Shown piece by piece: positions 7,590 to 58,233 of a stretch of 64,000 bases of DNA. The translations under genes were made by a program, and so were the position numbers. Numbering within the stretch: the stretch's first letter is position 1; every line of letters starts with the position of its first letter. Below the pieces are notes generated by a model that searched no databases, was not told the origin of the DNA, and worked only from the letters and a program-made list of their open reading frames with translations. Source of the stretch: a virus (taxonomy: Duplodnaviria > Caudoviricetes); the IMG/VR virus record IMGVR_UViG_3300028591_000074, positions 96,001 through 160,000 of that record; one strand, written 5' to 3'.

Positions 7590-7975
7590 TGTATAAATCT
7601 CCTCCGTGCCTCTATTCTATTTCTAAGTTCATTTGCCACTGTATTTATATCATCATGGTTCCAGAACTTAACTACATCACCATCTACAAAGTAGTCCCAA
7701 TCAAATTCTATGTGTTGCCTTGGATCATATCCGAAACTGATAGTGGAGTAGACAGATACATCAAATATCCCATCTTCACCATCCTCCAATTCCAATCGTA
7801 ACCCAAGTAACTCTGCATCCAAATCTTCATCCATATTAACGATTTGCAACATATAATCTATATCAGATTTAGCGGAATTTTGAACATGTAGTGGTATTGT
7901 AGTCATCATAATTGAAAATCTCCAATCATTTATACTTAATAGTATAAAAGGTTTGGAAAGAAATTGCCGGAGCAT
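7586..7975 (-). CDS. Hypothetical protein (true start probably internal)
   Basis: ORF lies downstream of the promoter-like motif at 7943-7953. Confidence 0.5.
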   Translation of the reverse strand: MLRQFLSKPFILLSINDWRFSIMMTTIPLHVQNSAKSDIDYMLQIVNMDEDLDAELLGLRLELEDGEDGIFDVSVYSTISFGYDPRQHIEFDWDYFVDGDVVKFWNHDDINTVANELRNRIEARRRFIQ

Positions 7976-8814: not shown

Positions 8815-9420
8815 TTAAAAATTTTGATCACTTTGACGTTTTCCTTTTTCGAACAACTTACAATTATTGTAGTCAGAACCACGTAAATCTACTAATTCTT
8901 TCCCAACTAAACGCAAGCAGGTTGTTTTATTACACTTTGCGTATTCACACATAACATGATTTAGTGCAGCTTCATTGGAACTATACGCATTTTGTGATTT
9001 CGATCCAAAATATCCATGATACTTGCACTGTTCACATTTCTTCTTATTAAATTTACTTTTCAATATTAACCACCACCAACGTATTATACACCTATATAAG
9101 GTTAAATGTTACAATTATTTTACAGAACTTTTAATTTTTGTAATCTTTTCATAAAGATTGAGGTTATTTGCTTCCCCTTCAGGATCGATTAACCGTTTTG
9201 CATAAGCAGCAAGAATGTCAATATAGAGTTTCTGAATCTCAATATCACTATATCCGGATTCTGCTAACTTTACCATTTCCATCACAACTACAGTAGCAGC
9301 ATCTACTTTAAGTCTTGCTTCTTCCGCACTGTCTAAATGCATTTCGAAAGATTCTAAGTTTTCACTAATTTCTTTTGTAACCGTGTTAAGTTTGATAACC
9401 ATACTATCACCACCAATCAT
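8815..9420 (-). CDS. Two small hypothetical proteins (8815-9063 Cys-rich; 9115-9420)
   Basis: Packed ORFs with RBS-like upstream sequences. Confidence 0.5.
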
Positions 9421-10278
9421 TTAATAATCTACACAAGAAAGTCTATCTGCAAATTGTAACAGATATACCATAGGATACTGTCTGCAAGCCTGACTAAACT
9501 CAGGCATTTCACTATCTGCCACATTATATTCCCCCATATGCCACCGGATAGCCAATGCTTCTTCATAAGATAGTTTGAAAAACTTAGATGCGATAAACAT
9601 GGATGAAGCACCATGACCAAGGCATACAGACCGATTCTTTTTGTATTTATAAGATGCAACTGTATCCCATGAATCAGTAACCTCATCCTTTACATTCCTA
9701 TTGAATGATTCATAAAGCCCTATCTTACACCAGTCATGTACAAGACAAGCACGGATGGCTCTTGCAACACTTACTTCATTACCAAATAATTTAGCACCAC
9801 AAAGGTCTATGCATCTATTTGCAACTTTCAGTGTATGCAGTAAGAGTCCACCAACAAAGTTATCATGGTACTGTGTAGATGCTGGACAGTTATAAAAATC
9901 AGTAGTTCTAAGCCAATCTAAGCACCTAAACACAGAATCCATCATTGAATCTGGATTCTTATCATCTTCTTCAGCAATAATCATTGTGGTTGCTAGTAAA
10001 AGCCGTTCATACCGATCAATCATATCAACCTGATTTTCAAAGGAATCTTTCCACACATAGAATTGAAATTCTGGACGTTTTTCAAACTTACTCCAATCAT
10101 CTGCGTACCCATTTTCATCCGCAAATTTTACTGTAAATGCGGACTTTGGAATACTTGTCATATGCTTTTTATCTGCAATCGGAATCACAACAATATTTCT
10201 CGTAGGAATATGAATGCGAAACCAATTTGTAAAGGTTTCATATTTAGCCATGTCTGAATAATCTTCCCGTTTTATCAT
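9421..10278 (-). CDS. HD-domain phosphohydrolase
   Basis: PASTQYH, GGLLLHTL, LVHDWCKIG, LGHG, AIRWHMG, LLQFAD. Confidence 0.88.
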   Translation of the reverse strand: MIKREDYSDMAKYETFTNWFRIHIPTRNIVVIPIADKKHMTSIPKSAFTVKFADENGYADDWSKFEKRPEFQFYVWKDSFENQVDMIDRYERLLLATTMIIAEEDDKNPDSMMDSVFRCLDWLRTTDFYNCPASTQYHDNFVGGLLLHTLKVANRCIDLCGAKLFGNEVSVARAIRACLVHDWCKIGLYESFNRNVKDEVTDSWDTVASYKYKKNRSVCLGHGASSMFIASKFFKLSYEEALAIRWHMGEYNVADSEMPEFSQACRQYPMVYLLQFADRLSCVDY

Positions 10279-10702
10279 TTATCAACACCATCCTTCATAA
10301 TATTCTTGAATGTTTTGATACAATCATCTATGGTAGAATTGATTAATGCACTTCTGGATGTTTTATCTTTACGTTTCAAGCATTCCATAGATGCAATAAC
10401 CTGTTTTGTTGGACACATCTGATAATCAACCTGTAATGCAGCTTCTAATGTAGCCAAAGCCTTTAATGTTTCCAACGGTAATCGTTTTTTAGCCTTGAGT
10501 GGGAACTTTTCCAAATCTTGATACTTTAAATATTTTTGTGCATCAAGTAGAGTTTTATAGGCTTCTGATCTTGTCATAGTAGTGAACTCCAATCATCCAA
10601 TCGGTTATATACATAAATTATAACGATTTCCATACACAAAATGGATGAGCCTACCAAAACGGTAAACCCATCCACTCCTCATGATGCCATTATATGTATG
10701 TT

Positions 10703-11056
10703 TTACTGAGGTCCATCCTCATCATCAGATTCATCTTCTTCAACAGGTTCATCTTCCTCTGGATCATCAGAATCGTCTGATGATGAATTGGAACCTTTCA
10801 GAAGTTGCTTTGGAATCTGATGTATTCCTGTTGCAGCAAAACCGGATACAACACCGACTGCTGCGGCTGTAATAATATCTTCTGCTGGGAAATCTGGAAT
10901 CTTGATAAGATATGCAACTATACCAAGGATAAGTCCAAGGGTTCCACATACACATGGAATCCACTTATCGTCCAATACAGTAACATTCTTCCAAATGTAT
11001 CCAGCTAAAAATGCTATTACAGTTATACTTGCTACACTAGCAATACCAAAACCCAT
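10703..11056 (-). CDS. Holin (Dp-1-like) with acidic C-terminal tail
   Basis: Three hydrophobic segments; DKWIPCVCG and AAAVGVVSGFAATGIHQ; RBS GGAGG before ATG at 11056. Confidence 0.8.
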   Translation of the reverse strand: MGFGIASVASITVIAFLAGYIWKNVTVLDDKWIPCVCGTLGLILGIVAYLIKIPDFPAEDIITAAAVGVVSGFAATGIHQIPKQLLKGSNSSSDDSDDPEEDEPVEEDESDDEDGPQ

Positions 11057-11106
11057 AACAAACACCTCCGCTACTATATTTTGATAATATAAAAGGTTTT
11101 ACATAC

Positions 11107-11200
11107 AAAAAATAAGGAAGAGCCTAACACCTTGCAGGGGGAGAGTGGTGTTAGACCCTTCCTAGTTGGAGAAGGACACAGATGATGAAATTAATCCCAT
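11107..11200 (-). ncRNA. Candidate small RNA with C-rich loop
   Basis: Promoter-like motif at 11208-11218, no ORF, then a 17-bp stem with a 15-nt loop ACUCUCCCCCUGCAA and a U-tract. Confidence 0.45.
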
Positions 11201-11360
11201 CCAATAGTATATAAGGTTAATCTTCCTGTTCAGACATTTGTTTCAATGCCTCTACTGCTAAATCTAAGGCTGTATTTATCTTAACAGTTCCATCGAAGTC
11301 CATAGGATTGAATCTATAACATTCTGATTTTATAACTGTTATTGCTTCAGAATATGTCAT

Positions 11361-11864
11361 TTAAATTAATTCCTCCAGTTCTCCAGTATAATCTAATAAG
11401 TCTTTTCTGCTTGGTATTGTCCGTATCTCTTTGTATGGAATGCCCCACTTATGTACCTTTAGCACATTTAATGATTTATGTCCACTGTTTTCTAAATCAA
11501 CAATATCCTGTATCTTTAATACGAACGCACGTTTGTATGTAGAAAATAGTACAATAACCAGCCCATAGCATCCTTTAATTTTTGAAACTTTTAAAAGTCC
11601 ATCGTGCTGATGCGGTTGAATCATATCAAAATCAAATCTATCGTGACTTGTTTCTTTAGATTCTATGTAGTAGCAATTAGGATATTTATAGCAGATGAAA
11701 TCACAAATGTTCCGGCTAGTCTTATAATAGCCTGACATCTGATCATAAAGTCGAGTAAAAGAGTAGCCATCCTCAGGTCGATTTAGCCACTCTTTTATCT
11801 TCGCTTCTGCTTTTTTACCTAATAGATTATCCATATTACATATTCTTTTCTGCCCACTTATCAA
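11361..11864 (-). CDS. recU: RecU-like Holliday junction resolvase
   Basis: GKKAE, CDFICY, YIESKET and IQPHQ match the RecU PD-(D/E)xK pattern; likely start MDNLL. Confidence 0.75.
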   Translation of the reverse strand: MISGQKRICNMDNLLGKKAEAKIKEWLNRPEDGYSFTRLYDQMSGYYKTSRNICDFICYKYPNCYYIESKETSHDRFDFDMIQPHQHDGLLKVSKIKGCYGLVIVLFSTYKRAFVLKIQDIVDLENSGHKSLNVLKVHKWGIPYKEIRTIPSRKDLLDYTGELEELI

Positions 11865-32488: not shown

Positions 32489-32660
32489 CCGTTACCAAAA
32501 ACTTACAAAAGATTATAAATTTCTAAAAATCTTTATGTTTTGTTCCTGTTTCATTGAATCCGATTTTGCCAAAGCTACTTTCGTTTGATATAACTCTCCA
32601 CAGGCTTAACTTCCCGATTAACGCTCGGTAGGATATGATTATCAGCATTTAATTATACTA
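32489..32660 (-). ncRNA. Putative TnpB omegaRNA scaffold (IS right end)
   Basis: Non-coding stretch between the tnpB stop and the right end, which is the established omegaRNA location. Confidence 0.6.
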
Positions 32661-33915
32661 AATGAAGTTCACCATAAGATTTTAGGTTCTTCGCAGCATT
32701 TACATCCCTATCTTCTGAATATCCGCAATCACATCTGAATATTCTGTCAGATAATTTTAAATCTTTTTTAATCGTTCCACAGCAATTACATGTTTTTGAA
32801 GATGGATACCATCTATTTGCAACTATTAGCGGAATATTATACTTATCTGAGTTATACTCAAGAAGTCTTCTGAAGTCATAAAATCCTTGATTCTGAACAG
32901 ATTTAGACAAATGTTTATTTTTCATCATACCGGATATGTTCAAATCTTCTATACATATAAACCTTGGTTTTCGGTTTATAATATCACTAACAATATGACT
33001 TCGTTGATTTCTACGGATATTGCGTAATCGTTTATTAAGTTTCAATAAAGACTTTTCAGACTTTATAATATTATTAGTCTTTTGGTAACTTCCTCCTTTC
33101 CTATTACTTACATATTTTCTCGATATAGATTTCTGTAATCTACGTTTACGTTTCTCTAATCTACGGATTTTAGAAGATTTGTTTATATTAGCATACTTCG
33201 TAGAATCACTTAATATAGCAAAATCTTTAATTCCTACATCAAGTCCTATACCATCAGATTCTGGCACATATTTCGTAACATCCGTACTATCCTCAACAAC
33301 GACAGATACCCACCAATGCAATCCATCGAAAGTTATTCTAGGATTCATATAAGATGCCAATATCGGAATCCTACCAACTTCCGCAAGTCGAACATTACAC
33401 TTCACATTCCGTCTTGAACGATTTCCAGAATCACATAATTTTTCTATACGAACAGTTGAATCTGTAAATTGGATCTTAAAATTATCTTGGAAGAAACCAC
33501 AATCTGTATGATTCTTCCGGCTTTTATATTTCGGATGTCCTTGCTTATCATATTCAGTAAGTTGTTTACCAATTCGTTTCGCATGTTCAATCTGCTTTTT
33601 CGTATATGGTTTATAATTTTCAGATTTTCGTAGATTGAAGTATCTAATATATGATTTTACAAGATCCTTTATTGCTTGTTTTGTAACATTATTAGATATC
33701 GACTGCAGCCAAGAATATTCTTCTGAATTTCTCAGTTTTGTAAACTCCTTACGTAGTACACTGTCTGAAATAAACCAATTTCCTGAATTAAGACTTTCCA
33801 TTTCCTTGTGTAAAGCCCAATTATAAGCGAACCTTGATGCACCAGCAAATTGGAATAATCTGGATTTCTGCCAGTTATTCGGAAGCAACATCACTTTGAT
33901 CGCTTTGTACTTCAT
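32653..33915 (-). CDS. tnpB: TnpB RNA-guided nuclease, catalytic triad intact
   Basis: RuvC-I GLDVG, RuvC-II IEDL, zinc finger SSKTCNCCG...CDCG, RuvC-III DRDVNAAKNL. Confidence 0.95.
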   Translation of the reverse strand: MKYKAIKVMLLPNNWQKSRLFQFAGASRFAYNWALHKEMESLNSGNWFISDSVLRKEFTKLRNSEEYSWLQSISNNVTKQAIKDLVKSYIRYFNLRKSENYKPYTKKQIEHAKRIGKQLTEYDKQGHPKYKSRKNHTDCGFFQDNFKIQFTDSTVRIEKLCDSGNRSRRNVKCNVRLAEVGRIPILASYMNPRITFDGLHWWVSVVVEDSTDVTKYVPESDGIGLDVGIKDFAILSDSTKYANINKSSKIRRLEKRKRRLQKSISRKYVSNRKGGSYQKTNNIIKSEKSLLKLNKRLRNIRRNQRSHIVSDIINRKPRFICIEDLNISGMMKNKHLSKSVQNQGFYDFRRLLEYNSDKYNIPLIVANRWYPSSKTCNCCGTIKKDLKLSDRIFRCDCGYSEDRDVNAAKNLKSYGELHLV

Positions 33916-54460: not shown

Positions 54461-54530
54461 AAATGAACATTATTCAACTTTCTTGCGTATAAGATTATTT
54501 CATATTTGTGGTTATACTTCCCACGGCCTT

Positions 54531-54886
54531 GTTTGACACCTATGTAAGTTAGCATTTCATCAAAACTTCTACCATGTATCAAGCATTTTGACACCTATGT
54601 AAATTAACATGACACCAAAACGATATCGTGATTTCACCGCGTATCTGGCTTGTTTGATACCTATGTAATTTAACATGACATCAAAACAGTAGCAGTTACA
54701 TTCATGATACTTCCTCCAGTTTGATACCTATGTAATTTAACACTGTATCGAAACTAATAGCACGCTTTTGTTTCGATTCGCTTTGTTTGACACCTGTGTA
54801 ATTTAACATTGTATCGAAACTAATATCGGATTTGGAAGTCAGTTGGCAAGGTTTGATACCTATGTAATTTAACATGACATCAAACC
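54531..54886 (-). CRISPR. Array A: 6 degenerate 36-bp repeats, 5 spacers (19,30,31,30,30 nt)
   Basis: Repeats start at 54531, 54586, 54652, 54719, 54785, 54851; plus-strand consensus GTTTGAYACCTATGTAATTTAACATGACATCAAAAC. Confidence 0.92.
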
Positions 54887-55000
54887 CCAAATCACACACG
54901 TATTCAGTTTTGATAGCATATTTACAAAGGTTTAGTGAGTGCTTTGTGGAAATCATTATAGATTTCCTACCTCACTATAAGGTTGTCAAATCAACCCTTA
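54887..55000 (-). ncRNA. tracr/omegaRNA-like scaffold A
   Basis: Anti-repeat at 54907-54930; stems tagtgag/ctcacta, ggaaatc/gatttcc, ggttg/caacc. Confidence 0.75.
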
Positions 55001-55043
55001 TATATAAATATTTCAATTACATGTAACAACCGATCCTTCTGAT

Positions 55044-55585
55044 GTTTGACACCTATTGAATCCCATAGCTCAACAAAACTGTATTAACTGTCATGTTTTC
55101 TTCGCTTAGATTTGACACCTGTGTAATTCCGCAGTTCCTCAAAACTATAATGTATTACCCTTGAGTTTGACTATGTTTGATACCTATATAATTTTGCAGT
55201 CTGTCAAAACCGGTATCTCACCTAAGCCGTTTTCCACAGGTTTGATGCCTATGTAATCTCACAATCTAACAAAACCAAGATGTTCTTGTCGATGCCATCA
55301 AGGAAGTTTGACACCAATGTAATTTCGTAGTCCAACAAAACAGAAACTGATATATGAGAATCCCATGTATTAGTTTGACACCTGTGTAATTCCATAATCC
55401 ATCAAAACTTAGCGAATGTCTGTTCACTTTTGACACCTATGTAATCTCACAATCCAACAAAACAATGAATTGTGTTCTTTCATCTTGATTGTTGTTTGAC
55501 ACCAATGTAATTTCATAGTCTATCAAAATCTTCAGACAAATACCTAATAAGTTTGACACCTATACAATTTACAGTCCGACAAAAC
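55044..55585 (-). CRISPR. Array B: 9 degenerate 35-36-bp repeats, 8 spacers (30,29,29,30,31,19,30,21 nt)
   Basis: Repeats start at 55044, 55110, 55175, 55240, 55306, 55373, 55428, 55494, 55551; consensus GTTTGACACCTATGTAATTYCAYAGTCYAWCAAAAC. Confidence 0.92.
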
Positions 55586-55700
55586 ATCAAATCACACATA
55601 TTCAGTTTTGACAGATCATATTTTACAAAGGCTTAGTGAGTGTGTTACGTGAATCATTTCAGATCACTACCTCACCATAAGGTCGTCAAATCGACCCCGT
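55586..55700 (-). ncRNA. tracr/omegaRNA-like scaffold B
   Basis: Paralog of scaffold A; anti-repeat at 55605-55631; compensatory ggtcg/cgacc stem. Confidence 0.75.
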
Positions 55701-55736
55701 ATATTAAATTTTACGTTACGATTATATTTAGCATAA

Positions 55737-55869
55737 GTTTGATGTATTTGTAATTCCATACACCACCCGGGCCTGTAGTTTGATGTCCTTATAATTCCAT
55801 ACAGTTCAAATCAAAAGTATAATCATCCAACCTTTTATGTTTGACATCTATGCAATCACATATAGGATC
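55737..55869 (-). CRISPR. Array C: 3 strongly degenerate repeats
   Basis: GTTTGA-starting units at 55737, 55778 and 55839; the first two share taattccatac, the third is more diverged. Confidence 0.6.
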
Positions 55870-55961
55870 GTTGATCCGTATGAAATTACAAAGGCTTGGT
55901 GAGTGTGTTACGGATAATTCTGAGACTATCCTACCTCACTTTACGGCTGTCAAATCAACCC
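55870..55961 (-). ncRNA. Scaffold C overlapping the Cas12f-like stop codon and fused to its first repeat
   Basis: Third paralog of the scaffold; ggatc-gtt-gatcc hairpin joins anti-repeat to repeat. Confidence 0.7.
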
Positions 55962-57295
55962 ATTATTGTAATATTCTTTGCCTTGTTATAGGCATGACTG
56001 ATTGTTTTTCCACAATGAGGGCAAGTAAACGATACTTCCTGTGTCCATTCAAATACCTTCGGAATTACTTCTTCTGTACAGAATACTTCACCGCAAGAAC
56101 TGCATACATTCCGGACTGTCCGAAGAACATCTGTCTTTTTATCCTGCTTATCAGTCATCTTACTTGTTGTTACAACAATACCTTCACGTTCTGCCTTATA
56201 AGTAATGAACTGTACCAACTGGTAATAGGACCAATTCCGAAGAAGTACGGGGTAATCATCAAGATCTGACTTCGTTACATCTTCTACCACAATAGCGGAT
56301 ACCTTGTTATCTTTTGCAAACTCAACAACCATCTTACTAAGATTATGATTGTATGTCTGCACATAATTTTTCTCATAGGACTTATGTGTTTCAAGTTTTG
56401 CTAACTTCTTCCCACGACCATGCCCACCATTGGAATACTTCAAAGCTCTCTGAAGATTCTCAAAGTGGATCTGAATATCTTTTCGTTTTGCTACAAGATC
56501 ATTCTTTATTGATCCGCCAATCTCATGTTCATCATCATCTGTAGAAAGTGCGGCAACAAGACATTTATCATATCCAAGTGCAAGCCCCATAATCTTTCCA
56601 TGCTCTGGGATATATTCTTCTGCATCACGCTCAATCTTGACAGACAGATTAAATATAATCTTACCCTTGTTCGTAATCTGAATCGTGCTACCGCAGACTT
56701 TATAATGTTCCGGATCAGTTACAATAGATTCCAAAAGTGACGGAAGGAACTTGTCCGGACCCTTATTCTTACCTGCACCAAGATACAGTTTGAAATGGAT
56801 TCCGTTTACAAACTTAAAGAAGTAGGCATTTACGGTATTTTCCGTTCCATCATCCGTAGTGTAGGTATCATCCCCGGTATAAATAGTAATGAACCTGCTT
56901 GGAACCATAAGTGGGAAATCTCTTTTATAAAATGGTAGATTCCGTTCACCCTTTGCAAGACCATTCTTCAAAGCTGTGGAAAAGTCCTGTTTTACTTTCA
57001 TACCACAGTTCCCGGCCATACCCAAACCCTTCGCCTGTTTCATATCATGTATGGCAGTATTTGTATTACGGAATATCATCTTCATTTCTTCCTTGAAGTT
57101 AGGATCATTGAAGTTCTTATCATACTTATAGTATAAGCACCCAACCTGTGACATGTAAGTATTCAAGATACAATACTGATTATAAATCCCGTCACGAAGG
57201 TACTGATATACTCTATCTCGTTCTTCTTTATCACCTACCGGGAATAACTGAATCTTCTTTGTTGTGATTGTAGTTGTTTTCTTCTGCATACCCAC
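55955..57295 (-). CDS. cas12f: Cas12f-like (type V-F / TnpB-derived) protein, predicted nuclease-dead
   Basis: KNGLAKGERNLPFYKRDFPLM, GGHGRGKKL, TYNHNLSK, RNWSYYQL..FITYKAEREGI, CSSCG...CPHCG. RuvC-I is GLALG (normally GVDLG), RuvC-II VEDV is retained, RuvC-III is SHAYNKAKNI (normally NADxNAAxNI). Confidence 0.88.
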   Translation of the reverse strand: MGMQKKTTTITTKKIQLFPVGDKEERDRVYQYLRDGIYNQYCILNTYMSQVGCLYYKYDKNFNDPNFKEEMKMIFRNTNTAIHDMKQAKGLGMAGNCGMKVKQDFSTALKNGLAKGERNLPFYKRDFPLMVPSRFITIYTGDDTYTTDDGTENTVNAYFFKFVNGIHFKLYLGAGKNKGPDKFLPSLLESIVTDPEHYKVCGSTIQITNKGKIIFNLSVKIERDAEEYIPEHGKIMGLALGYDKCLVAALSTDDDEHEIGGSIKNDLVAKRKDIQIHFENLQRALKYSNGGHGRGKKLAKLETHKSYEKNYVQTYNHNLSKMVVEFAKDNKVSAIVVEDVTKSDLDDYPVLLRNWSYYQLVQFITYKAEREGIVVTTSKMTDKQDKKTDVLRTVRNVCSSCGEVFCTEEVIPKVFEWTQEVSFTCPHCGKTISHAYNKAKNITIMG

Positions 57296-57381: not shown

Positions 57382-58233
57382 CTAAAAATTAGTTATCAAC
57401 ACTTCATCCAATCCAATATTTTCTGAACCCTCTGAACGATACCGCCAATGATTACTATAATTACCTAACTGAATCACATTGTACTTACTGCTCCAGTTAA
57501 TTAGCAAATCATTTGACTTTTCACCATGTTTTAATACATTAGACAATGCAAACTTGACATTTTTCTGATTTAAAGTATCAAGTATATTTAATAAATCAAT
57601 ATCATCCTGTTCCAACCAACCACCAAATCCACGTTTACCATCACTGTAAGATCCTAAAGTGATACTATATGGTGGGTCACAATATACAAGTGAATCAGAA
57701 GTTAAATCTGTAAAATCAAATTCCCTGAAATCTAAACTTGTTAATACATACTTCTTTTCCTTCAGAAGTTTTGAAAAGTCCATAAGATTTTTCGCAGCGG
57801 TTGACGTAAAACATTTTTTTCCAAAGGAGGTATTAAATTCCATAGAATTATTGAACCGGAGTACATTGTTAAATGCGTAGAATGATAAGACTAATAGTAG
57901 CATAGGTTCTTTTGTCTTATTATATTCATCGCGTAATTCCATATATCCATCAGCATTTGCTTTACTTAATTTGAATCGATCAATCGTAGAATTGATATCT
58001 TCAAATATTGTAGATGTTGGTGTAGTCATAATATAATTATAGACTTCAATGAGATATGTGATTCTATCATTTGCATAAATGATGTCAGCATCTACATTTA
58101 CTGCAACATTCATACCACCTGTAAATAAATCAACGAACTTATCAATATGTTTTGGAAAAACCGGAATAATCTTTCCAAGTATTTCAAACTTACTACCCAT
58201 ATAGTTTAATGGGGATTTTACAAAATCTAGCAT
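57382..58233 (-). CDS. dam: Dam-like (D12 class) DNA adenine methyltransferase
   Basis: SPLNYMGSK, FVDLFTGG, RFNNSMEFNTSFG, VYCDPPY, FALSN, EVLITNF. Confidence 0.9.
   Translation of the reverse strand: MLDFVKSPLNYMGSKFEILGKIIPVFPKHIDKFVDLFTGGMNVAVNVDADIIYANDRITYLIEVYNYIMTTPTSTIFEDINSTIDRFKLSKANADGYMELRDEYNKTKEPMLLLVLSFYAFNNVLRFNNSMEFNTSFGKKCFTSTAAKNLMDFSKLLKEKKYVLTSLDFREFDFTDLTSDSLVYCDPPYSITLGSYSDGKRGFGGWLEQDDIDLLNILDTLNQKNVKFALSNVLKHGEKSNDLLINWSSKYNVIQLGNYSNHWRYRSEGSENIGLDEVLITNF

Follow-up and report, generated by a model that had tools for sequence, protein, structure and literature searches.

A phage locus for a predicted nuclease-dead Cas12f with three guide-RNA modules, split and fused

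The stretch of DNA analysed here (the window) comprises 64,000 nucleotides, positions 96,001 to 160,000, of the IMG/VR virus record IMGVR_UViG_3300028591_000074 (Duplodnaviria; Caudoviricetes), a phage genome of 253,527 bp with a G+C content of 35.8% and a CheckV completeness estimate of 100%. It contains a locus in which every feature lies on the minus strand. A Cas12f-like gene (55955-57295), present in a single copy in the phage genome and predicted to encode a nuclease-dead protein, is followed downstream by three paralogous scaffold RNAs of about 90 nt, which were detected by eye and with a covariance model, and by arrays of repeats and spacers of the CRISPR type. These elements form three modules, named C, B and A in the order in which they follow the gene. 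In modules B and A, a scaffold resembling a tracrRNA (trans-activating CRISPR RNA) is split from its array, whereas in module C scaffold and repeat are fused.

The gene encodes 446 amino acids with a Cas12f1-like TNB domain. The PADLOC models for Cas12f and Cas12u3 matched this protein from end to end (E about 1e-71 to 6e-71), and its best sequence hits in the Protein Data Bank (PDB; 12 with E < 1e-10) were Cas12f-type chains, including RhCas12f (9NZP, E = 3e-49; identified as RhCas12f through PMC13186708) and CnCas12f (8HR5, E = 1e-40), with the motifs aligned. When an AlphaFold2 model (predicted local distance difference test score of 82.8) was searched with Foldseek, ranks 1-21 were all Cas12f or dead Cas12f (dCas12f). 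By sequence and by fold, the protein is of the Cas12f type (V-F1 lineage), with RhCas12f as its nearest solved relative. Cas12p ('hacker') and Cas-delta were considered as identities and set aside by size and fold rank.

In HMMER alignments to CnCas12f and AsCas12f, the RuvC-I motif GVDLG was replaced by GLALG (A239) and the RuvC-III motif NADYNAARNI by SHAYNKAKNI (A437). The D-E-D triad is thus not intact; the RuvC-II glutamate and a CxxC...CxxC zinc ribbon were retained. Clade alignments revealed that both aspartates are missing from every relative of about 40% identity or above, with A, S, V, R or G in their place, and that more distant homologues have D/E/D. These three residues were also present, in a direct pairwise alignment, in a canonical TnpB encoded elsewhere in the window (32653-33915). 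Because the RuvC-I and RuvC-III aspartates are lost clade-wide, and are intact in the distant homologues and in this TnpB, the protein is predicted to be a DNA binder and not a nuclease; judged from its sequence, it is probably RNA-guided and without nuclease activity. A test for C-terminal truncation was negative, the protein being full length with both CxxC pairs and the NKAKN motif in place.

Folding with RNAfold gave one architecture for all modules: a first stem (stem 1) capped by an AUUUGA loop, a long-range helix around a variable hairpin, a long repeat:anti-repeat hairpin closed by a 3-nt loop (module C) or by a linker (modules A and B), and a free tag of 7-9 nt ahead of the guide. Covariation was examined in an alignment of 18 scaffold copies, taken from the window and from five related loci (numbered with the prefix L). 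Across the scaffold helices, 94% of the cells were paired and both sides had changed at 9 of the 16 pairs; one stem 1 pair occurred in all four Watson-Crick forms. No shuffled control matched this result (0 of 500), and slid partners were only 33-48% paired. The tag and the stem 1 loop, which form a pseudoknot, also covaried, reading ATTTGA/TCAAAC in most loci, ATTTGG/CCAAAC in L085, L004 and L089, and ACTTGA/TCAAGC in L086. Compensatory changes back three scaffold helices and the pseudoknot, and the protein-binding core and the pseudoknot tag are common to all scaffold copies. A search of the locus against Rfam gave no family match.

The scaffold core of module C (55893-55961; covariance-model hit of 79.5 bits, with a corresponding fold) comprises stem 1 with its ATTTGA loop, the long-range helix and an inner hairpin. 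It starts at 55961, 4 nt before the TGA stop codon of the gene (55955-55957), and the stop codon falls inside the first stem-loop. The core leads into a fused terminal hairpin (55839-55894) made up of the anti-repeat (55878-55894), a GGATC-AAC-GATCC hairpin (55865-55877; gtt on the plus strand) and the partial repeat C1 (55839-55864), which is 26 nt long and ends in the tag GTCAAAC. RNAfold predicted one long hairpin, with the GGATC-AAC-GATCC element folding as expected and the tag remaining single-stranded. An earlier reading of this DNA, made from its sequence alone (the sequence-only reading), had described the overlap of scaffold C with the stop codon, the triloop that joins anti-repeat to repeat and a natural single-guide fusion in module C; the overlap and the triloop were confirmed, and the reading of module C as a natural single-guide, omegaRNA-like unit was supported. 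The unit folds as one and stands beside two split units of tracrRNA and array.

Further repeat-like units lie downstream of this hairpin (55737-55838). Guide C1 (25 nt, 55814-55838) is followed by repeat C2 (35-36 nt, 55778-55813), a guide-like stretch of 16 nt (55762-55777) and the half-repeat C3 (25 nt, 55737-55761). Anti-repeat C forms 14 Watson-Crick pairs and one G:U pair with C3, in agreement with the complementarity reported in the sequence-only reading, and 12 Watson-Crick and three G:U pairs with C2. It is the best partner of both C2 (-17.1 kcal/mol) and C3 (-16.0 kcal/mol).

Scaffold C has no upstream region of its own; the terminal ATGGG of the gene merges directly into the GGGTTGA of the scaffold. 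In the related locus L005, the first scaffold is situated about 20 nt past the stop codon, behind its own AT-rich region. Given this arrangement in L005, a deletion at the shared GGG, which would have removed the promoter, appears to be the best account of the overlap in module C.

Other features of the module C region were also recorded. The G+C-rich stretch after C2 (TACAGGCCCGGGTGGTGTAT, window 55762-55777) is kept with 3-4 changes in L001 (7658-7677) and L002 (about 7632-7653). The idea that guide C1 starts with a phage promoter motif was tried and rejected, as ATAAAAGGTT was found, with at most one mismatch, 10 times in the window compared to 10.5 expected, and the genome matches end at 10-14 nt. 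The exact 10-mer, which forms the first 10 nt of guide C1, occurs eight times on the plus strand of the genome (for example at window positions 7944 and 11089), usually just after TAAT or TAGT, and may be a motif of the promoter or ribosome-binding-site type.

Module B begins with an AT-rich region (55698-55736) in which a TAATAT box lies 3 nt before a GGG start; this putative promoter region is conserved at the homologous modules in L001 and L003. The scaffold core (55630-55697), anti-repeat B (55605-55631) and the linker together span 55587-55697 (covariance-model hit of 79.9 bits), and the linker ends in GATTTGAT immediately before repeat B1. Array B (55044-55586) has nine heterogeneous repeats of about 36 nt, and its spacers are 29-31 nt long apart from two short ones of 21 and 19 nt. 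The upstream region of module A (54998-55043), again AT-rich, contains TTGTTA, 17 nt, TATATA and then GGG, a candidate promoter; this region also precedes one module in each of L001 and L003. It is followed by the scaffold core (54929-54997), anti-repeat A (54907-54930) and a linker that ends in GATTTGG before repeat A1 (54887-54997 in all; covariance-model hit of 80.1 bits). Folded in cis with repeat A1, scaffold A gave -43.1 kcal/mol (z = -4.5). Array A (54531-54886) has six 36-nt repeats; its spacers measure 30-31 nt, with one shorter spacer of 19 nt.

Anti-repeat A was found to pair with a stretch of about 28 nt at the start of the A repeats. Anti-repeat B has an exact complement of 11 nt in repeat B7 only and pairs with the other B repeats largely via G:U. 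The mean duplex energies of anti-repeat and repeat were -14.9 (A), -15.7 (B) and -16.6 (C) kcal/mol, compared to -6.4 to -8.4 kcal/mol for shuffled anti-repeats (z about -5), and only 0-1 of 300 shuffles reached the observed value. The sequence-only reading was therefore right that anti-repeat A mirrors the A repeats; for B, the duplex is likewise well beyond the shuffles, but the exact mirror is limited to B7. The same reading had proposed that each array co-evolved with its own anti-repeat and that the locus may supply three orthogonal guide sets, with the predicted pairing of each scaffold with each repeat class as a check. When whole anti-repeats were compared, array A bound A and B equally (-14.9 kcal/mol each), and array B preferred B (-15.7 against -12.9 kcal/mol). 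When the distal 13 nt were compared at equal length, their own anti-repeat was the better partner for every A repeat (six of six) and for seven of the nine B repeats, by a mean of 1-2 kcal/mol. The check thus yielded a small cognate preference in the distal segment, which is not seen when array A meets the whole anti-repeats; cognate matching is clearer in C2/C3, L003 and L082 (see below). There is thus local covariation, as would be expected of a tracrRNA that is copied along with its neighbouring repeats. A cognate preference was absent in L001, L005 and L007. Because the pairing differences are too small and the shared core and tag too similar, orthogonal guide sets were not supported; a partial specialisation of the modules is possible.

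Related loci showed that multiple scaffolds are a general feature of the dead clade, at least two copies being present in 10 of the 11 distinct dead-clade loci examined, which span 40-98% protein identity. L001 and L002 (97-98% protein identity, from IMG/VR) have four scaffolds, arranged as two fused units, a tracrRNA with 12 repeats and a tracrRNA with 7 repeats. In L003 (81%), a fused unit, two split units and a second fused unit were found, the fused ones being followed by half or mini repeats reduced almost to the tag. L004 (62%) has one fused unit. L005, L007, L082, L084, L085 and L086 (40-60%) have two split modules each, in tandem or flanking the gene, with homogeneous repeats. The active sister-clade loci L088 and L089 have one tracrRNA with an array of 36-nt repeats and 30-nt spacers, upstream of the gene.

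A quick maximum-likelihood tree of 33 rows was midpoint-rooted, which placed the active clade across the root. Fused units were confined to a derived clade of seven rows (Shimodaira-Hasegawa approximate likelihood ratio test support of 99), and the deeper dead-clade branches and the active relatives were split. Since the split arrangement is found in the active sister and on the deep branches, and the fused one only in the derived clade, fusion is considered to be secondary; on these sequences, the fused units are most likely re-fusions of a tracrRNA with a half repeat. This polarity is the reverse of that in the sequence-only reading, which had seen in the locus stages of a transition from omegaRNA to tracrRNA and CRISPR array. 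Altae-Tran et al. (PNAS 2023, PMC10691335) proposed such a re-fusion of tracrRNA and half repeat for a different dead Cas12f lineage, and Hoffmann et al. (Nature 2026, PMC13472631) echo this scenario.

The relatives also provided some separate observations. The runs of mini or half repeats after fused scaffolds (L003 6440-6615 and 7720-7800; L001 7597-7660) have tags of 8-10 nt (GCATCAAAC) at a spacing of 12-45 nt. In L001 (8600-10100), and at the equivalent position of L002, an IS605-type TnpB (429 amino acids, with flanking ends) is inserted between two split modules; the corresponding junction in the window is uninterrupted. A module of tracrRNA and array lies directly upstream of the dead-cas12f start codon in L007 (4824-5000), L084 (3669-4000) and L085 (3496-4000). 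In these three loci the last guide or repeat abuts the ribosome-binding region, and a coupling to expression is possible.

Two RNA libraries from one sheep-gut sample contained contigs 100% identical to the window over 54521-54985, 55225-55691 and 55768-55949, and a DNA run covered the whole locus stretch. At scaffolds A, B and C, the RNA-library contigs fall 6-12 nt short of the predicted 5' end. None of them reaches upstream of 55691 at module B, and neither RNA run had any depth in the bin 55006-55106. The region 56016-57126, within the gene, was covered by the DNA run and had no RNA-library contigs, which in assembled contigs of one sample is no sign of low gene expression. This pattern is a weak hint of separate, abundant guide transcripts. 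Joints between paralogous scaffolds that were seen in run X3 are probably assembly chimeras or other strains.

The arrays turn over between close relatives. Spacers B1, B5, B6 and B7 are common to the window and L001/L002 at 93-96% identity, and the remaining window spacers differ. In a goat-gut strain (run X2), 193 other letters replace 194 nt of array A between 54687 and 54882, equivalent to about three repeat-spacer units. Searches with the spacers gave only chance-level matches of 14-21 nt in the phage's own 253-kb genome, and best E values of at least 1 against GenBank phages and PLSDB plasmids. In IMG/VR, the 18-mer hits of spacer B5 extended no further than 19-25 of 30 nt, and the matches of B6 were related arrays only. 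Spacers A4 and A1 had no match in JGI metagenomes. When the spacers of five loci were compared with all the loci collected, nothing turned up beyond self matches and spacers that are shared. In GTDB genomes, a degenerate search with the conserved stretch after C2 returned 55 hits, compared to about 70 expected by chance according to a hand estimate. Autoregulation by an array B spacer was considered and rejected, as no spacer match of at least 14 nt was present upstream of the gene. Overall, the spacer set looks like a working guide repertoire against unsampled hosts or rival elements.

The linker of about 20 nt that joins anti-repeat and first repeat is conserved between modules A and B, as the sequence-only reading had noted, and also occurs in relatives. 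Its invariant part is the last 6-7 nt, and the junction with the first repeat reads TTTGAG/G(T/C)TTT (the first slash marking the junction) in 15 of 18 split modules from 10 loci and in both active sister loci. The window junctions are degenerate (TTTGGG and TTTGAT), reading GATTTGG/GGTTT and GATTTGAT/GTTTT. Since the linker motif is unchanged where the pseudoknot tag changes, it is not the pairing partner of the tag. The motif resembles the leader end of type II-A group 1 arrays, ATTTGAG/GTTT, which together with one repeat is sufficient for adaptation (Van Orden et al. 2017, PMC5382924). The array geometry, with repeats of 36 nt and spacers of 30 nt, also fits type II-A, as do repeats that start with GTTT and end with AAAC. 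Unlike those arrays, the phage lacks cas9, cas1, cas2 and csn2 (Cas1, Cas2 and Cas9 had no match anywhere in the 253-kb genome), and its guide is used 3' of the repeat. Among 401 Clostridia-class genomes sampled, one cas9-cas1-cas2-csn2 locus had the leader end AATTTGAG; its repeat agreed with the phage repeat at 25 of 36 positions as the reverse complement and at 20 of 36 directly.

From these likenesses an adaptive, multiplexed form of CRISPR interference (CRISPRi) without its own adaptation genes can be envisaged. The linkers would act as II-A leader-anchoring sites at which host Cas1-Cas2-Csn2-Cas9 would load spacers, the dead Cas12f would use the resulting guides via the phage tracrRNAs, and guides that no longer take part in this process would persist as the fused and half-repeat units. 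We regard this as a tentative and rather doubtful extension, because of the question of repeat orientation and the degenerate window junctions. Separately, a three-repeat array was observed in locus L096 of a bacterial genome (G062; 8996-9163), with a 36-nt repeat that is identical to the phage repeat at 29 of 36 positions in the same orientation. Directly upstream of it lies an open reading frame of 850 amino acids (9188-11740) with no Pfam or PADLOC match, which could be an unrecognised effector.

Taken as a whole, the locus is likely to be the guide-RNA locus of a phage nuclease-dead Cas12f that carries out guided binding without cutting and CRISPRi-like silencing, with interchangeable modules and secondary fusion, rather than a record of how CRISPR arose. 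The protein would bind DNA under RNA guidance and silence genes of the host or of rival elements, and about 17 guides would probably feed this one DNA-binding protein from separate transcription units. Modules B and A would be autonomous, each with an AT-rich promoter-like region, a tracrRNA-like scaffold of about 90 nt, a linker and a short array, and the anti-repeat of each could find its partner either in the first repeat, in cis, or in any of the others, in trans. Module C, having lost its own upstream region, would be transcribed by read-through of the cas12f mRNA, and the fusion of its anti-repeat to a half repeat would give a hard-wired single guide; the two repeat or half-repeat units that come after it match this anti-repeat. 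The guide would be placed by the pseudoknot that each unit forms when the final 5-6 nt of the repeat (TCAAAC) pair with the stem 1 loop. Because the protein-binding core is common to all scaffolds, the modules probably serve the protein interchangeably, and their duplication would provide separate transcription and dosage, not orthogonality.

Several observations weigh against this interpretation. A target or protospacer adjacent motif was found for no spacer in the collections searched, and it is the lost residues that point to silencing. A scan for sigma-70 consensus promoters returned 17 sites, compared to 14.5 expected, which is not above chance. The RNA evidence consists of assembled contigs of one sample, in which DNA carry-over is possible, and the polarity comes from a quick midpoint-rooted tree with module states from 10 dead-clade and 2 active loci. 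Cognate matching does occur in C2/C3, in modules 2 and 3 of L003, where it is reciprocal, and in L082 (CCTGT/ACAGG versus ACTGT/ACAGT). Finally, the RuvC-II glutamate is retained and a nearby Asp/Asn position (D243) is semi-conserved.

The last two points also bear on alternative explanations. If module C were ancestral, with the locus preserving stages from omegaRNA to tracrRNA and CRISPR array and the three modules orthogonal via co-evolved anti-repeats, then the omegaRNA-like overlap with the stop codon, the coexistence of fused and split units, the distal cognate bias of 1-2 kcal/mol and the reciprocal preference in C, L003 and L082 would be readily accommodated. This explanation is nevertheless improbable, as the outgroup and the deep branches are split and the fused units derived, the stop overlap is better explained by a deletion at the shared GGG (compare L005), anti-repeats A and B bind array A equally, and three other loci have no cognate preference. 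It is also quite improbable that the protein is still a nuclease or nickase with a rearranged RuvC site, in an interference-competent type V-F system that cuts the phage's rivals. Two of the three carboxylates are replaced clade-wide by A, S, V, R or G, and identical losses define known dead Cas12 proteins; D243, which lies four residues after the lost RuvC-I aspartate, is N or S in several members. In favour of this explanation are the position of D243, the kept RuvC-II glutamate and the rearranged catalytic sites described in TnpB and Cas12 (PMC10691335).

A different kind of explanation is that unequal recombination in a decaying locus left the extra scaffolds behind, and that no more than one module is functional. 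The heterogeneous repeats, some truncated spacers and the half repeats fit such a locus, as do the variation in module number and order among close relatives and the IS605 TnpB inside the locus in L001/L002. Three helices are, however, kept by compensatory changes in every copy, at least two copies are retained in loci across 40-98% protein identity, and all three modules are covered by RNA-library contigs, which makes decay very unlikely. Least likely of all is an RNA-based anti-CRISPR, in which the scaffold anti-repeats would pair with type II-A-like repeats of the host and the dead protein would capture host precursor CRISPR RNA, instead of or besides the phage guides. The similarity to the bacterial repeat is 20/36 direct and 25/36 as the reverse complement, and the phage retains spacers of its own, which turn over; the type II-A kind of repeat geometry and leader junction, and the related repeat at the Clostridia-class cas9-cas1-cas2-csn2 locus, are what this explanation has in its favour.

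The favoured interpretation, a guide-RNA locus of a dead Cas12f, can be compared with known systems. With type V-F1 Cas12f (RhCas12f 9NZP, CnCas12f 8HR5, AsCas12f 8J12) the phage system shares the miniature fold with a zinc ribbon at the C terminus, a tracrRNA that contains an anti-repeat, an array that lies downstream, the lack of adaptation genes and a guide 3' of the repeat tag. It differs in that the phage protein lacks the RuvC-I and RuvC-III aspartates and has three tracrRNA copies in place of one, one of them fused to a guide and overlapping the stop codon. Hoffmann et al. (Nature 2026, PMC13472631) described sigma-E-linked dCas12f and mentioned an array-linked dCas12f cluster. These proteins are also Cas12f descendants with an inactivated RuvC, and 9N9C was both a sequence and a fold hit; they are C-terminally truncated, whereas the phage protein is full length with its zinc ribbon. 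The phage-borne gene also differs from the sigma-E-linked type in having no sigma factor: the test for a link to an extracytoplasmic function (ECF)/rpoE factor was negative, and there was no match to the sigma-70 family (Sigma70_r2) in the 253-kb genome. Split arrays, half-repeat units and a fused unit in one phage locus further distinguish it from both kinds of dCas12f. Altae-Tran et al. (PMC10691335) proposed that single guides arose from the fusion of tracrRNA and half repeat, followed by duplication.

Compared with TnpB-omegaRNA systems (ISDra2) and with TranC intermediates (Jin et al., Cell 2025, as cited in PMC13565253), the scaffold overlaps the 3' end of the gene and the guide is at the 3' end of the scaffold in module C only; a pseudoknot beside the guide is shared, and it is plausible that a single-guide RNA and CRISPR RNAs both serve one protein. 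Unlike those systems, the phage locus has neither transposon ends nor TnpA, its protein is dead and its polarity is one of re-fusion rather than first splitting. Unlike IS200/IS605 TnpB, the gene is single-copy, is followed by arrays and belongs to a locus conserved in related phages. LaTranC was a distant structural match only (Foldseek rank 31).

The wider setting of the locus is that of a gut phage. Of the sampled words of the phage genome, 95% were present in one sheep-gut DNA run, and parts were found in goat- and sheep-gut runs; the clade itself occurs in large phage-like contigs, obtained from samples of ruminant and other guts. PHROG matches within the window include phage helicases and methyltransferases, and the locus DNA had no match in the phage collection searched. 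Dead-cas12f is adjoined by a Dam-type methyltransferase gene and by genes of unknown function. The D12-class N6-adenine DNA methyltransferase gene lies directly upstream (57382-58233, minus strand), a position that is not conserved in L001 and L003. The TnpB mentioned above, the second TnpB-family gene in the window, is also on the minus strand (420 amino acids; PHROG 506, E = 4e-89). Its GLDVG, IEDL and DRDVNAAKN motifs are all intact, and this canonical TnpB is probably active.

In the literature searched, array-linked dead Cas12f was found only as a passing mention with no functional test, and no natural locus was described in which one effector is accompanied by several modules of tracrRNA and array. 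What is new here is that split units, half-repeat units and a fused unit stand together in a single locus, that duplication of the scaffold is a clade-wide trait, that the change has most likely been towards fusion and that the leader junction resembles that of type II-A. If this junction is functional, it would explain how spacers are renewed in phages without cas1 and cas2. The clade appears to duplicate its tracrRNA regularly, which would give every mini-array a transcription unit to itself. Because one locus contains split arrays, half-repeat units and a re-fused single guide, a proposed step in the origin of single-guide dCas12f RNAs may be examined in living intermediates. With a predicted binder of 446 amino acids, scaffolds of about 90 nt and natural single-guide forms, the system is a compact candidate for programmable repression.

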